Positions 44,586 to 51,373 of a DNA stretch of 64,000 nucleotides are shown here, in pieces. Within the stretch, counting starts at the first letter, position 1; each line of letters opens with the position of its first letter. The stretch spans positions 787 through 64,786 of the forward strand of contig JAGLZA010000099.1 of the NCBI GenBank assembly GCA_023131835.1. The letters run 5' to 3'. Position numbers and translations under genes: made by a program. The notes beneath the pieces were generated by a model. That model worked only from the letters and a program-made list of their open reading frames with translations, searched no databases and was not told where the DNA came from. The DNA is from a candidate division WOR-3 bacterium (GTDB lineage Bacteria; Hydrothermota; UBA3072).

Positions 44586-44910
44586 GAGGTTTCATTATTT
44601 TTCGTCCTACAATTTCAATAAGGGAAGTAACAACAATGGTTACGAAGGATCGAAAAGTGGATTACCCTTTTCTTCTTTCTTCTGAATCAAGTAGAGACGA
44701 GGCAATGCCTCGTCTCTACAAAGTTCTTGCAATACAAGCATTGTAGGAGCAGGTCTTGCCTGTGGGTGCACTGCACCTGTCTGCGTGCGAGAACGCACAG
44801 GTAGACGCAGACAGGCACCTACCCTCTCATCTCTCGTAACCGCCTCATTAGATAATTTCTATATCTAACAGGGTAAACAAGGATTACCCCTGCGAAAAAT
44901 GATGAAACTC
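44586..44910 (+). mobile_element. MITE-like element (copy 2) with TIR GGAGGTTTCATTATTTTTCG ... CGAAAAATGATGAAACTC and internal palindromes
   Basis: Shares ~85% identity with the reverse-complemented element at 51106-51373, including the palindromes TAGAGACGAGGCAATGCCTCGTCTCTA and CCTGTCTGCGTGCGAG..GCACAGGTAGACGCAGACAGG. Confidence 0.7.
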
Positions 44911-44940
44911 ATCTGAGATTAATACTTAACTCTTTAACTC

Positions 44941-45756
44941 CTATTCCTCGTCAGATAAAATTTTCTTTATTGAGAATGAGATTCCAAGATTCATACCACT
45001 TAAAAATGCAAAAAACTTTCCTAAAAGCAGATAAAGTGTTAATTCATCCCTGATAATGAAAGTAAATATAGCTGAAATTCCAAGAATTAACGAGGAAATC
45101 AATATCTTGGGTAACGTCTTCTTATAAAATTTTATTCTTCTAAGTGGCTTATATTCTGGAAATGACTTGCGTGCCCATTTTATATATTTTGGCTTATGGA
45201 GTAAAAGTTCCATAAAGCCAGGGAAAACAAATGTCAGAAAAAATATCAAAGATATCGTAAAAAACCAGACGAAATCTCCTTTCAATAATATGATTAAACA
45301 GTACAAAATAAACATTATATTATTTATTCTCAACATCATAAATTCTCTCATAATCAAACACTCTCTCATATTTCCTTTCCTTCTTTCAGCAATGACTGAT
45401 AGTTTTCTGCTGATGAGATAACCAATAAAACCCCAGAAAGTAGCTTCGATTACTAAAAGAGAAATATAAGCGGGGGTGGTTGAAGGATTAACTATAACTT
45501 CCCAATTTACCAAATACATAAATAAATTAATATAGCATTTAATAATAGCATCTACTATAGGATTAATTGGCACATAAGTTTCCAAAGACCACCAAGCACC
45601 ACCAATTATAATTTTTAGAGAGCCAATAAACAATAAAAATAATATAATAAAAATTATATGGAAGTGCCTTCTTCCAAGATGTGTTTTCAAGGTAATTAAA
45701 ACAAAAATCAGAAGTCCTAAATAGGGAGAGATAAACAATAAAAACCATGCAAACAT
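44941..45756 (-). CDS. Polytopic integral membrane protein, hypothetical
   Basis: 271 aa, highly hydrophobic with ~7 predicted TM segments. Distal gene of the rhs cassette. Confidence 0.5.
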   Translation of the reverse strand: MFAWFLLFISPYLGLLIFVLITLKTHLGRRHFHIIFIILFLLFIGSLKIIIGGAWWSLETYVPINPIVDAIIKCYINLFMYLVNWEVIVNPSTTPAYISLLVIEATFWGFIGYLISRKLSVIAERRKGNMRECLIMREFMMLRINNIMFILYCLIILLKGDFVWFFTISLIFFLTFVFPGFMELLLHKPKYIKWARKSFPEYKPLRRIKFYKKTLPKILISSLILGISAIFTFIIRDELTLYLLLGKFFAFLSGMNLGISFSIKKILSDEE

Positions 45757-45838
45757 ATAATTATCTCACTAATATGCCCAACTTGGCCAATCTACCCAAA
45801 TGAGATCTTTCATCCATCCTGGTGGTGATTCTTCAAGG

Positions 45839-49600: not shown

Positions 49601-50974
49601 ATATATTACCTCATCATTGCTCAGATTTTCATCCCCATCTCCATTTATAAACTCTATATATTCCAGTCTCTTCCTTTCTGTTCCATCATACCAGTAATAT
49701 ACCCTGTCCCCTTTTTTGTAACTCCAATCTGCTGTATTGTTCTCAGAATATTTACCGGTGGGAAGCACCCTTACTCTTAGATTATGGTTATTATCATAAA
49801 AATATCTCTCAAGAACAATGGAATCACTTGCTGTTGAATTATATCTGACCACCCTTGTTAATTCTGGGTATCCATTATTTGTTTGATATCTGTAGGCATA
49901 ATAAGAACTATTAGGGCCAGAATGGTCATAGATCCTCTGTATTAGATTCCCTGAATAGGTAATATTAACCTGCCTTCCAGATGGTCCTTTTATCTCCGTT
50001 AGTTTGTTTCCGTTATAATTAAAGTCTATCTTATTACCGTTTATGCCAACAATTGAATCGCATTGTGTCCAGGACTTTCGATTCTTTTTTGTGAAATAAT
50101 ACTTCTTTCCATCCATTCTTTTTAATACCCATAAGGTATCACCAGAATCAATAATTAACTCCAGTTTATTATGGTCACCCTTACTGCTTGAGTATTCCTC
50201 CTCGCTGGAGTTCCATTCATAATAAACCTCATTTCCATCTCCATAATGAACCCTGCAGGTCCAATCATCTGTATCTGGAGCACCCCCTTCGATGGTTAAA
50301 TAGATATTATAACTATGTGTCCAGCCCCAACCAAAAGGACGCATACAGGAGATATCATAATCATCATCATAATTCTCATTCTCCTGGTTGGCAAAGAATC
50401 TATAAAAATCAATATCCATACCCCTTTCAGAGGAATACAGGTCTCTTGACAGATAGAAATTATTGCCGATAACTGGATTTACCGGGTCGCCTTCAGAAAA
50501 AGGTGGTTTGTCAGGTAAACCTGGTGGTGCTGCACCTCCAGGAGATCCATCGGGAGATGGGGTATCACCGTCACGGTAGTTGGGAGCAGTTGGTATGGCT
50601 GTGATTATGATTTTATCAGAGTTTCCACCAGCATCATATACCGTAAGGGTACCAACAGAAAAAGGAGAAGGTGTTCCATAGCCCTTTGGGTCAAAAAGGA
50701 CATAATCATAATAAGCACCAACTCCAGCCCATTCGACACCACCCCATTCCCCTATTTCAGACCATTCCCAGTAATTCTTTACAATTGGCCAAAAATCAGA
50801 AGAACATGGAATTGCAGCCATATAGTCAATCCCAACATTGATTTGCTCTCCCATAAGGATTTCAATTTTTCCATATCTTTCAGAGTTTGATCCTCTTCCT
50901 ATTGTATTCAGGTTTTTACCTTTTGCATTACTAATAAAAAGTGATAATAATATGATAACTAATGTTTTTCTCAT
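46628..50974 (-). CDS. Secreted RHS/YD-repeat polymorphic toxin with C-terminal phospholipase A2-like domain
   Basis: Signal peptide MRKTLVIILLSLFISNAKG (start at the ATG at 50974, which follows GGAGG). Dozens of YD repeats. RHS core end motifs YYHHDGLGS, RARYYAPELGRFISEDP and NPYIYCSNNPVNFVDPYGM. The ~95-aa C-terminal tip carries a WCGPSYSGG (Ca-loop-like) motif and CCMHHDFC (PLA2 His-Asp motif). Confidence 0.8.
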   Translation of the reverse strand: MRKTLVIILLSLFISNAKGKNLNTIGRGSNSERYGKIEILMGEQINVGIDYMAAIPCSSDFWPIVKNYWEWSEIGEWGGVEWAGVGAYYDYVLFDPKGYGTPSPFSVGTLTVYDAGGNSDKIIITAIPTAPNYRDGDTPSPDGSPGGAAPPGLPDKPPFSEGDPVNPVIGNNFYLSRDLYSSERGMDIDFYRFFANQENENYDDDYDISCMRPFGWGWTHSYNIYLTIEGGAPDTDDWTCRVHYGDGNEVYYEWNSSEEEYSSSKGDHNKLELIIDSGDTLWVLKRMDGKKYYFTKKNRKSWTQCDSIVGINGNKIDFNYNGNKLTEIKGPSGRQVNITYSGNLIQRIYDHSGPNSSYYAYRYQTNNGYPELTRVVRYNSTASDSIVLERYFYDNNHNLRVRVLPTGKYSENNTADWSYKKGDRVYYWYDGTERKRLEYIEFINGDGDENLSNDEVIYKVYFKYYPGGSTGSPDSTVVYYYQDSIEIGAMDTSNTPQQPNPLTDNVFRKKIVFDNDGNFTKSITIPRYLPPSTYTYESYDSDYNLKRIITPENDTFSYTYEESYTDPSGTRYFPNVTKIEYPIRDSIRIWYGLPTGDNPRYIATDSIRDELWRKIEYYYDGSGNIDSMVYPSRYISGTGITDVSNDFTHNSKGNLTEIRDPVGNISRFSYAPNDTGPYLTQRRIDIAPSGNGDEDIVTEFSYNKIGQTEKVTYYRDYPKDYSIINREYDLLNRLEKIQYPDGTELIYTYDKRGNIIKKEIRNKESEYYSTIEYRYDAMNNLIKTKEYVDEKSPSDSTLYRYNLHSELIGFTNANDSTGVSTEIKYRYDAGRLYSVEYPDTTNDSLGYYPDGNIKFKRNRREKVISYNYDKMDRLIKKLFYDSFLDYQSENPADSVIFGYDKTGKIVSMIDNNGTINYSYDEMNHLDTMDVYQRFTTTYEYDKVGNRTKLKVFNHSNPGEVYLCQEYTEYDEANRLKRTMVGNATFDFTYWDVGSIKKIEYPNNFEENYILTSRNFIDSVDITFGGYSKYIFSYDYNAVGDRVGLNARLGMPMGPPVSGIGEFEYDDLRRLTQAYFEETYYKLKNIYTYDKTGNRVKKKVEVIPPPGYTRNYTYNKSNNQLMSVDADNYYYDRNGNLTEYITSYEYYFDWDYENRLTEIRLSDTKNEDTLTLTYCGQGKRIRKVNHSTNDTTEYVYDGMFAVGEFGGHKNLKYNYVYANGLLLARYNTADTHYYHHDGLGSIIGITDRSGSIEQTYFYDGFGNILADEGDVDNHYLFAGYEYDKFAGLYNLRARYYAPELGRFISEDPISQREMSASMPHYQWFFPISSIHYTPQSINPYIYCSNNPVNFVDPYGMFAAHGNWCGPSYSGGKDKSVDDMNPNELKSLKPPEDCKDICCMHHDFCVLKCRRFYDYGIDRMKCWLKCWNELQDCTNNCGNDIPNGPLLPVE

Positions 50975-51105
50975 TTTTCCTCCTTTCTTTGATATCCTTT
51001 TTGTATGCATATCAAATTCAAGAGCAAACTGCAAAAAGGGTCATTTTTCATTATTTGATAAGAAATATAACCAGTTTTTATTAAAAATCAAGTGGGATGG
51101 TTACT

Positions 51106-51373
51106 GGAGTTTCATCGTTTTTCGTAGGGGTAACCCTTTTCGGTTGCGAGAGATTAGAGAGTAGGTGCCTGTCTGCGTGCGAGCCCGCATAGGCAGGCAA
51201 GGCATAATCCTACAATGCTTGTATTGCAAGAGATTTGTAGAGACGAGGCATTGCCTCGTCTCTACTTGATTCGGAGGAAAGAGGTAATCCACTTTTCGAT
51301 CCTTCGTATCCCTTGTTGTTACCTCCTTTTCGCAAATTGTAGGGCGAAAAATGATGAAACTCCGACGGAGAGC
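51106..51373 (-). mobile_element. MITE-like element (copy 3), inverted relative to copy 2
   Basis: TIR GGAGTTTCATCGTTTTTCG ... CGAAAAATGATGAAACTCC. The internal sequence is the reverse complement of 44586-44910. Confidence 0.7.

Follow-up and report, generated by a model that had tools for sequence, protein, structure and literature searches.

Three short elements, here called A, B and C, probably constitute a previously unnamed MITE family of 260–330 bp in a candidate division WOR-3 bacterium. They lie in the window, that is, the whole stretch of 64,000 nucleotides of DNA that was analysed. Copy C is a proven recent mobile insertion that is polymorphic between strains, because sister strains have an empty site at its position and a 10-bp target duplication, perfect in both copies, borders the element. 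Copies A and B, which surround an Rhs operon, are best read as members of the MITE family within a strain-specific island, not as a demonstrated composite transposon. Overall, no new mechanism is revealed; the family is new but of the ordinary MITE kind, and it documents active or recently active elements in WOR-3, a candidate division from which no member has been cultured.

The insertion of C can be followed at the nucleotide level.

6802..6811, no strand: left copy of the C target-site duplication, ATAATATAAA
6812..7117, no strand: MITE copy C (306 bp), whose 21-bp TIR, TTGGAGTTTCATCATTTTTTA, is perfect
7118..7127, no strand: right copy of the C target-site duplication, ATAATATAAA

The site is filled in the window and in L145 and L147, and empty in L146, L153, L150 and L151, with flanks that are near-identical between filled and empty sister strains. 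The filled site reads ...[TTTATATTAT]TTGGAG...CTCCAA[TTTATATTAT]..., and the empty site holds a single TTTATACTAT. All ten positions of the duplication match (10/10, P<2e-4 with window-derived nulls). The empty site also led to the element ends being widened by 2 nt; the TIR of the family is written (TT)GGAGTTTCATCATTTTT. The locus into which C has inserted corresponds to ackA–ferredoxin alleles. An exact empty site, exact termini and the 10-bp duplication should aid the annotation of WOR-3 genomes and help to explain assembly breaks.

A, B and C share a TIR of 17–21 bp, TTGGAGTTTCATCATTTTT. A search of the window for GGAGTTTCATCATTTTT with up to three mismatches returned six sites, which are both ends of the three elements; 0.9 sites are expected by chance, and none of 100 shuffles reached seven. 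C has only its termini in common with A and B and its interior is not alignable with either, as the earlier note had described for a third element with the same ends and a different internal sequence. No ORF longer than 62 aa lies wholly inside any of the elements (262–331 bp); two ORFs of 129 and 74 aa at B extend out into its flank. Beyond the window, a truncated C-type copy with its own TIR occurs at a second locus (84% identity over 119 nt); L168, L169 and L171 have it on the downstream side of a PEMT-like gene, and L170 lacks it. In L072, a Ca. Stahlbacteria MAG, a cluster of repeats starts with the same TIR. Three full copies and one truncated copy are thus counted in the ~100 kb of DNA that the count covers. 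The mobile insertion of C, the truncated copy and the Stahlbacteria TIR support the MITE reading; together with TIRs and the lack of coding capacity, they uphold the initial view of the elements as MITE-like and non-autonomous.

Scanning genome contigs with the 17-nt TIR gave at least 117 single matches; among the matches listed, only the Stahlbacteria repeat cluster was related, and a second TIR at a plausible distance was present only in one chance pair. The TIR-pair pattern (gap 236–296) found nothing related in JGI metagenome contigs, where three matches were unrelated: two in AT-rich low-complexity contigs and one in a long palindrome. Among viral contigs, the TIR gave 20 single chance matches, and both the palindrome and a subterminal 25-mer of A/B gave 0. 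Neither the plasmids of PLSDB nor the phages of INPHARED gave a BLAST match to A or C, and literature searches brought up no paper on this TIR or on MITEs in WOR-3.

A Pfam scan that covered ~30 window ORFs detected no transposase domain, in agreement with the earlier note, and none was present in the gene calls of overlapping contigs; an autonomous IS with matching TIRs was likewise absent from the window, from the listed genome-contig matches and from the other collection scans. The proposed mechanism would place a DDE-type transposase elsewhere in the genome, from where it would bind both TIRs in trans. Cuts staggered by 10 bp would then insert the element into AT-rich intergenic DNA with a 10-bp target duplication. 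The family is defined by its 17–21-bp TIR, with non-coding, GC-rich and hairpin-packed interiors that differ between subfamilies. A and B are older, diverged copies of a second subfamily, one in each of the two spacers that border the Rhs operon, at the distal end of the 18.6-kb island described below. Their bracketing of the operon most likely reflects two old insertions or the products of recombination; these spacers would have been the only non-coding DNA available around a horizontally acquired operon.

Correia/NEMIS, RUP and Nezha are bacterial MITEs of the DDE-insertion-sequence kind. The elements described here resemble such MITEs (e.g. MITEAba12 of Acinetobacter, PMC6382973) in being 260–330 bp long and non-coding, and in having TIRs and a target-site duplication. 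They share with them the insertion into AT-rich intergenic DNA, presence or absence between strains, and subfamilies with common termini but not interiors. They differ in that the TIR is without a match in PLSDB, INPHARED and the literature searched and the host is an uncultured WOR-3 bacterium, as well as in the 10-bp duplication and the GTAG...CTAC REP-like hairpin of the interior.

Copies A and B are reverse-complement homologues.

44583..44913, + strand: MITE copy A, 331 bp, its ends, like those of B and C, set with the 2-nt extension from the C empty site
51104..51365, - strand (inverted relative to A): MITE copy B, 262 bp

Across 262 aligned columns the two copies share 85.5% identity, the remaining 14.5% being accompanied by four deletions in B relative to A (7+19+8+34 nt = 68 nt), and they form inverted-repeat arms of 94, 87 and 38 nt with 89%, 85% and 92% complementarity. 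The two block-end elements had been recognised as reverse-complement copies from the outset, which the alignment confirms, although B had been extended to 51373 and ends at 51363/51365. They were also said to lie exactly at the block ends; they do adjoin it, but with gaps of 30 bp to the last ORF stop and 72–132 bp to the Rhs start. The interior of A contains nested GC-rich palindromes, among them the 29-nt GTAG...CTAC hairpin at 44691–44719, and the longest stretches identical in A and B are ~67 nt, including the 29-nt palindrome. Of the two palindromes that the elements were thought to share, GTAGAGACGAGGCAATGCCTCGTCTCTAC is found in both A and B; the second keeps its intact form in A but not in B, where it is degenerate.

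The left (outer) terminus of A, ATGGAGGTTTCATTATTTTT, is degenerate, with three mismatches or a 1-nt insertion, and is the most decayed of the six termini; the right terminus of A is AAAAATGATGAAACTCATC. The outer (right) TIR of B is perfect and its inner TIR has one mismatch. The flanks of A and B contain no recognisable target duplication (6/10 and 5/10, respectively), so that the transposition of these two copies is inferred from their homology to the family.

Between the two elements lies a three-gene block on the reverse strand.

46628..50974, - strand: Rhs protein (the gene call of the ENA contig gives 1448 aa, and the longest ORF extends to 51034)
45894..46565, - strand: hydrophobic multi-pass protein of 223 aa, the next gene downstream of Rhs
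45838..45887, - strand: 50-nt Rhs-fragment copy, 96% identical to internal Rhs positions 47314–47363, encoding HKNLKYNYVYANGL
44941..45756, - strand: 271-aa multi-pass hydrophobic protein without a family match, the last gene of the block

The Rhs protein has a DUF6531 domain and RHS/YD repeats (RHS_repeat 3e-18), with TEN_YD-shell on the identical ENA gene, and its core ends in the DPxGx-type motif ...NPVNFVDPYGM (...NNPVNFVDPYGM), followed by a 95-aa Cys-rich C-terminal domain. This domain has no sequence match in Pfam or PDB, and a single-sequence AlphaFold2 model of it is too poor for use (pLDDT 48.8). A passing resemblance of the tail to a phospholipase-A2-like WCGxxxxGG...CCxHHDxC motif is not claimed here. 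By its gene position, the 223-aa protein is a candidate immunity protein. The 50-nt Rhs copy attests to recombination that once took place in the 3′ region of Rhs.

This organisation is akin to that of Rhs/YD polymorphic toxin loci, with their DUF6531 and RHS-repeat shell, DPxGx core-end motif, short variable C-terminal domain, small genes directly downstream, and a displaced Rhs-core fragment downstream of the first small gene. It departs from them in that the C-terminal domain is without Pfam or PDB relatives, the genes downstream code for large multi-pass membrane proteins, and the window contains no secretion-system genes; the toxin and immunity roles are putative.

The block belongs to a larger unit.

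32789..51390, no strand: strain-specific island, 18.6 kb, absent from three sister strains

The sister strains that lack the island are 98.5–99.6% identical in its flanks. A type I RM/defence module (~32934–44503) is followed within the island by 65 bp, A, the Rhs operon, B and 25 bp; its gene types comprise type I RM, SIR2, AbiJ-like, Schlafen/Fic, HEPN and Rhs. The RM module is seen elsewhere without Rhs or MITEs, and homology stops ~70–80 bp before A. HsdM, trimmed to the ATG after a GGAGGAG Shine–Dalgarno sequence, had an exact-protein match, and its longest-ORF version had none; the same look-up gave no match for the last gene of the window as its longest ORF. Neither a decayed TIR at the left edge nor direct repeats at the edges of the island rose above noise. 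The Rhs operon is part of a modular strain-specific defence/toxin island, which is typical accessory-genome behaviour. A comparison of syntenic loci had been suggested for the presence or absence of the whole 6.8-kb block; what the sister strains lack is the 18.6 kb including the RM/defence module.

The earlier note had interpreted the block as a composite, possibly mobilisable, toxin cassette. A and B would then be the ends of a MITE-flanked composite transposon, and a transposase acting in trans would use the outer TIRs to move the 6.8-kb block of Rhs toxin and immunity genes. The Rhs operon is indeed flanked directly by two copies of one subfamily in inverted orientation, with a perfect outer TIR on B, and A–Rhs–B forms a module of its own within the island, since the RM module that adjoins A exists elsewhere without it and the chromosome resumes 25 bp after B. 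The chance of finding two same-subfamily copies inverted in adjacent spacers was estimated combinatorially (22 spacers of at least 60 bp) at ~0.05–0.1, which is suggestive but not compelling. That the only two A/B-type copies are adjacent, inverted and close up against a single operon is somewhat unlikely to be chance and leaves room for a functional link. Cargo flanked by MITE pairs is documented in Acinetobacter, where an NFM2-type MITE pair flanks class 1 integrons and a MITE-297 pair flanks a 76-kb mer region, the flanking copies being identical in the integron case (PMC6382973). As in these composites, two copies of one MITE here bracket accessory cargo; unlike them, A and B are not recent copies, as their divergence and four indels indicate, and the A–Rhs–B unit is seen nowhere else. 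In the Acinetobacter MITE–integron reports, target duplications reportedly surround the unit. No significant duplication of this kind surrounds the pair here (best 7/10, P=0.135, in a register unlike that of C), and the most decayed terminus is one of the two outer ends required. The absence from sister strains spans 18.6 kb rather than 6.8 kb. Finally, a search of 5.8 billion protein clusters turned up no close copy of the cassette; the two best Rhs homologues reach 38% and 35% identity, and around the second of these, from an organism of 52% GC, there are no TIR elements. Taken together, these observations make a composite transposon unlikely. That the A/B pair is a functional mobilisation module, which moves, or once moved, the Rhs toxin operon between WOR-3 defence islands with a transposase in trans, is quite unlikely as well. 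If true, it would be a MITE-composite transposon with an interbacterial toxin instead of a resistance gene as cargo, and only then would the MITE-composite concept extend from resistance genes to polymorphic toxins.

Other readings of the elements fare less well than membership in a MITE family. As an inverted pair with identical stretches of up to ~67 nt, A and B could be a substrate for homologous recombination that renders the Rhs operon invertible, or the relic of a past inversion by intramolecular replicative transposition. However, one long independent contig (L157) has a single orientation, the flanks carry no inverted target-duplication signatures (4/10, 5/10), and 85% identity makes a poor homologous-recombination substrate. 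The operon's own promoter region probably lies between B and the start codon, so that inversion would not be expected to switch expression; on balance, this reading is very unlikely. It is exceedingly improbable that the elements are a structured non-coding RNA family or conserved UTRs, an alternative which the earlier note had raised. A is located between two co-oriented operons, and the folds are very stable (z-scores of −7.4 to −10.5 versus shuffles), but the TIRs and palindromes trivially account for such stability. Rfam returned 0 matches at gathering score and noise only at E<=10, compensatory change between A and B occurs in 0 of 70 predicted pairs, and the deletions in B remove stems. 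The interior of C is unrelated to that of A/B, and sister strains do without C, which is therefore dispensable. Alternatively, the elements could be REP-like palindrome clusters of the BIME/REPIN type, spread by RAYT, a Y1 tyrosine transposase, with the 17-bp TIR incidental. The central hairpin of A/B starts with GTAG and ends with CTAC, as in REPs, the class GTAGAGACG-N10-CGTCTCTAC is common among contigs without a relationship to this one, with at least 120 loci in IMG/VR, and further GTAGGGGC...GCCCCTAC hairpins are found in window spacers. Y1 transposition makes no target duplication. C, on the other hand, was inserted as a whole, from TIR to TIR, and gave a 10-bp duplication; elements with unrelated interiors have the TIR conserved, and the window ORFs tested contain no Y1_Tnp domain, all of which renders this reading highly improbable.

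REP/BIME sequences are associated with RAYT transposases, and the SMAG repeats of Stenotrophomonas are 'GTAG' palindromes. The 29-nt hairpin of A/B is like these in beginning with GTAG, in being a perfect GC-rich palindrome and in having related hairpins in other window spacers. It is different in that the mobile unit is TIR-bounded and produces a 10-bp duplication, a search of the window ORFs tested turned up no RAYT gene, and the hairpin is a passenger inside the element, not the element itself. A remote possibility is that REP-like GTAG...CTAC hairpins of cross-taxon occurrence are captured by the TIR family as its cargo, which would link two repeat systems that are otherwise distinct. Short-read assemblies break at the 29-nt palindrome common to A and B.

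Three elements in the window are bounded by the same inverted motif, which forms part of a terminal inverted repeat (TIR) of 17-21 bp.

6814-7115, element C, bounded by GGAGTTTCATCATTTTT / AAAAATGATGAAACTCC
44586-44911, plus strand, element A, bounded by GGAGTTTCATCATTTTT / AAAAATGATGAAACTCC
51106-51363, minus strand, element B, bounded by GGAGTTTCATCATTTTT / AAAAATGATGAAACTCC

With up to three mismatches allowed, the motif occurs in the whole window at the six element ends and at one unrelated site; 0.9 sites are predicted by chance, and none of 100 shuffles reaches seven. An earlier reading of these sequences as MITE-like is borne out by element C, which has an empty site in sister contigs. 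Ten same-species contigs from several samples encode exactly the ferredoxin-like protein that adjoins C. The spacer between the acetate kinase and ferredoxin genes measures 672 bp in the window and in contigs L145 and L147, and 355 bp in L146 and L153; in the alignment, the element and its duplication are the sole large difference between the two forms.

Empty site: ...AAAAAATAT[TTTATACTAT]CTATTGC...
Filled site: ...AAAAAATAT[TTTATATTAT]TTGGAGTTTC...GAAACTCCAA[TTTATATTAT]CTATTGC...

By this alignment, C is a unit that spans 306 bp (6812-7117). Its 21-bp TIR is perfect, and the two copies of its 10-bp target duplication match at 10/10 positions; 5000 random flank pairs drawn from the window all scored lower. 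Downstream of a PEMT-like gene, L168, L169 and L171 carry a truncated C-type copy with its own TIR (TTGGAAGTTCATCATTTTTTAACG) and 119 nt at 84% identity to C; L170 does not have it. The Ca. Stahlbacteria MAG contig L072 ends in a repeat cluster that begins with the same TIR. Such features characterise MITE families; this family in WOR-3 is real and previously unnamed, and one of its insertions is demonstrably recent.

In MAG contig L149 (JAGMFB010000289.1), the PEMT locus is fused to the ferredoxin locus via the shared C-type repeat (L149 1-1180 versus L168 1600-1830), through either a chimera of the assembly or true recombination of two MITE copies. A third allele of the acetate kinase-ferredoxin spacer, seen when L150/L151 are compared with window 7130-7200, is devoid of C, and the sequence around GGGACTTGCCCGAACAC is replaced in it by another segment of ~50 bp, which marks this spacer as a hot spot of variation. 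A 90-nt direct repeat (6548-6637 and 17059-17148, 74% identity) is not a mobile element; it reflects N-termini that are paralogous between two Fe-S cluster proteins, one ferredoxin-like (187 aa), the other with a CCG domain (351 aa).

That A and B are inverted, reverse-complement copies of one another was confirmed, with slightly corrected coordinates, by a repeat finder (arms of 94 nt at 89%, 87 nt at 85% and 38 nt at 92%) and by pairwise alignment (85.5% identity over 262 columns, with four deletions of 7, 19, 8 and 34 nt in B). Of the palindromes said to be common to both, the 29-nt GTAGAGACGAGGCAATGCCTCGTCTCTAC has the same sequence in A and B, but a second, nested one is intact in A and degenerate in B. 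C has the termini alone in common with A and B, in keeping with its description as a third element with a different interior. The most degenerate of the six termini is the outer end of A. The Logan short-read contigs L118, L119 and L158 (SRR13892599) terminate exactly within the 29-nt palindrome, and the repeat thus fragments assemblies of this organism.

As an alternative to mobile elements, the earlier note had considered a structured ncRNA family. The folds of the elements are indeed very stable (z -7.4 to -10.5); this stability, however, is accounted for by the TIRs and palindromes. Compensatory changes between A and B are found in 0/70 predicted pairs, and segments that form stems in A are lost in B. 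Rfam returned no match at gathering thresholds across the whole window and only noise around the elements at E<=10, and sister strains do without C. The ncRNA reading is thus not supported.

What is directly shown for the family is TIR-bounded units, a 10-bp duplication, AT-rich intergenic insertion and strain polymorphism. By analogy with DDE insertion sequences and their MITEs, a transposase encoded elsewhere would bind the 17-21-bp TIRs in trans, and the element would be integrated at cuts staggered by 10 bp. IS4-like families, among others, typically make duplications of 9-12 bp, and the TIR alone cannot name the transposase family. As noted earlier, a transposase is absent, both among ~30 window ORFs scanned with Pfam and among the gene calls on public contigs overlapping the window. 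The window is chromosomal, encoding TCA-cycle enzymes, acetate kinase, a NiFe hydrogenase and a LarABCE cluster, and the NCBI record of the HsdM next to A names 'candidate division WOR-3 bacterium'.

Between A and B lie three genes, all on the minus strand.

Between A and B, minus strand, Rhs protein (RHS_repeat 3e-18, DUF6531)
Between A and B, minus strand, 223-aa hydrophobic multi-pass protein, no Pfam match
Between A and B, minus strand, 271-aa hydrophobic multi-pass protein, no Pfam match

The Rhs C-terminus reads ...NNPVNFVDPYGM and continues into a Cys-rich tail of 95 aa that has no relative in Pfam or PDB and gave no usable AlphaFold2 model. The DNA that separates the two membrane-protein genes holds a 50-nt copy (96% identical) of an internal Rhs segment; Rhs loci typically bear such recombination footprints. 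'Toxin/immunity' is thus a reasonable label on architecture only.

The proposal that A and B move this operon as a composite 6.8-kb cassette fared less well. The arrangement itself is real, and the inverted bracketing is suggestive; by a rough combinatorial estimate from 22 spacers of >=60 bp, two same-subfamily copies would fall into adjacent spacers, inverted, with a probability of ~0.05-0.1. Every direct test of a composite unit, however, was negative or uninformative. Flank matches were as follows.

Flank tests for target duplications
A alone: best match 6/10, P 0.46
B alone: best match 5/10, P 0.85
Outer flanks of the A..B pair: best match 7/10, P 0.135, out of the register of C
Inversion-type signature 1: best match 4/10, not significant
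Inversion-type signature 2: best match 5/10, not significant

The pair thus has no significant duplication, and the degenerate outer end of A also speaks against the cassette, as do the nearest Rhs homologues, which reach 38% and 35% identity in a database of 5.8 billion clusters; no A/B/C-like elements occur at the 35% relative, from an organism of 52% GC. With their decayed ends, indels and lack of a duplication, A and B are read as old copies, and their flanks may stem from later recombination. That the pair serves as a functional mobilisation module is very unlikely. Even if true, the composite reading would only vary an arrangement already known, the MITE pairs around cargo in Acinetobacter (PMC6382973).

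The synteny comparison, proposed in the earlier note, points to a larger unit. Three sister strains (L154, L155, L156), the flanks of which are 98.5-99.6% identical to the window, were identified through the deacetylase gene on the right-hand side of B. They do not differ by the 6.8-kb block; instead, 10 bp after the K+-channel gene (31788-32783) they continue into the homologue of the gene at 51414-52268, and 18.6 kb is missing.

32789-51390, 18.6-kb island: type I RM (HsdR/S/M) and defence genes, A, Rhs operon, B

The insertion point lies between the stop of the TrkA-type K+ channel gene and the next gene. YgjP, HEPN, SIR2_2, AbiJ-like and Schlafen/Fic-like genes are interleaved with the type I RM genes, and no integrase is found within the island. 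Its right edge is 25 bp past the outer TIR of B; the left edge has no TIR remnant. In L163, from another sample, a 90% identical HsdM lies within the same RM/defence module (80-91% nucleotide identity to window 32955-44503), in a different neighbourhood and without Rhs, A, B or TIR. The gap in the sister strains and this Rhs-free module show that the island is modular, in the order RM module, 65 bp, A, Rhs operon, B, 25 bp. Among the strains compared, none had or lacked the 6.8-kb block alone.

The best sigma-70-like promoter match of the region (51378-51406, TTGACA-17-TATTAT, 11/12) straddles the right island junction, with its -35 in the island and its -10 in the diverged flank. Where the island is absent, the downstream gene begins 10 bp past the K+ channel gene and has a different N-terminus (288 vs 284 aa).

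Several other repeats populate the spacers of the window.

1858-1886, 2288-2318, 58698-58729, 58924-58951: GTAGGGGC...GCCCCTAC hairpins
44691-44719 / 51237-51265: central hairpin of A / B, class GTAGAGACG-N10-CGTCTCTAC
2409-2572, 20310-20550, 58523-58670, 61108-61194: interspersed family of ~90-160 nt, both orientations
2130-2177, 53584-53631: short repeat family TCGAGGCnnnnnGCCTCTCCCACAAGATTAGTCC
53730-53759, 58784-58813, 60963-60992: hairpin family AAAAAACGCAGAnnnnnnTCTGCTACTCCA

The exact 28-nt GTAGGGGCAATTCATGAATTGCCCCTAC of the GTAGGGGC...GCCCCTAC hairpins recurs in a Ca. Stahlbacteria MAG (L072 735-762) and at 16 IMG/VR loci (L172-L187) with 37-64% GC, as many as 17 times within 14.8 kb, and is an identical REP-like hairpin common to very different genomes. 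The class of the A/B central hairpin is found at >=120 IMG/VR loci (L188-L307; 35-69% GC) with many different centres, where by our own estimate ~13 are expected by chance. The ~90-160-nt family carries motifs CCACAGAG and GGTTGGGCTCTTTAGTTCTC beside G/C-runs in four spacers (74-92% identity), and sister strains carry it, conserved, at the same sites. The TCGAGGCnnnnnGCCTCTCCCACAAGATTAGTCC and AAAAAACGCAGAnnnnnnTCTGCTACTCCA families both recur in the mosaic repeat cluster of Stahlbacteria contig L072.
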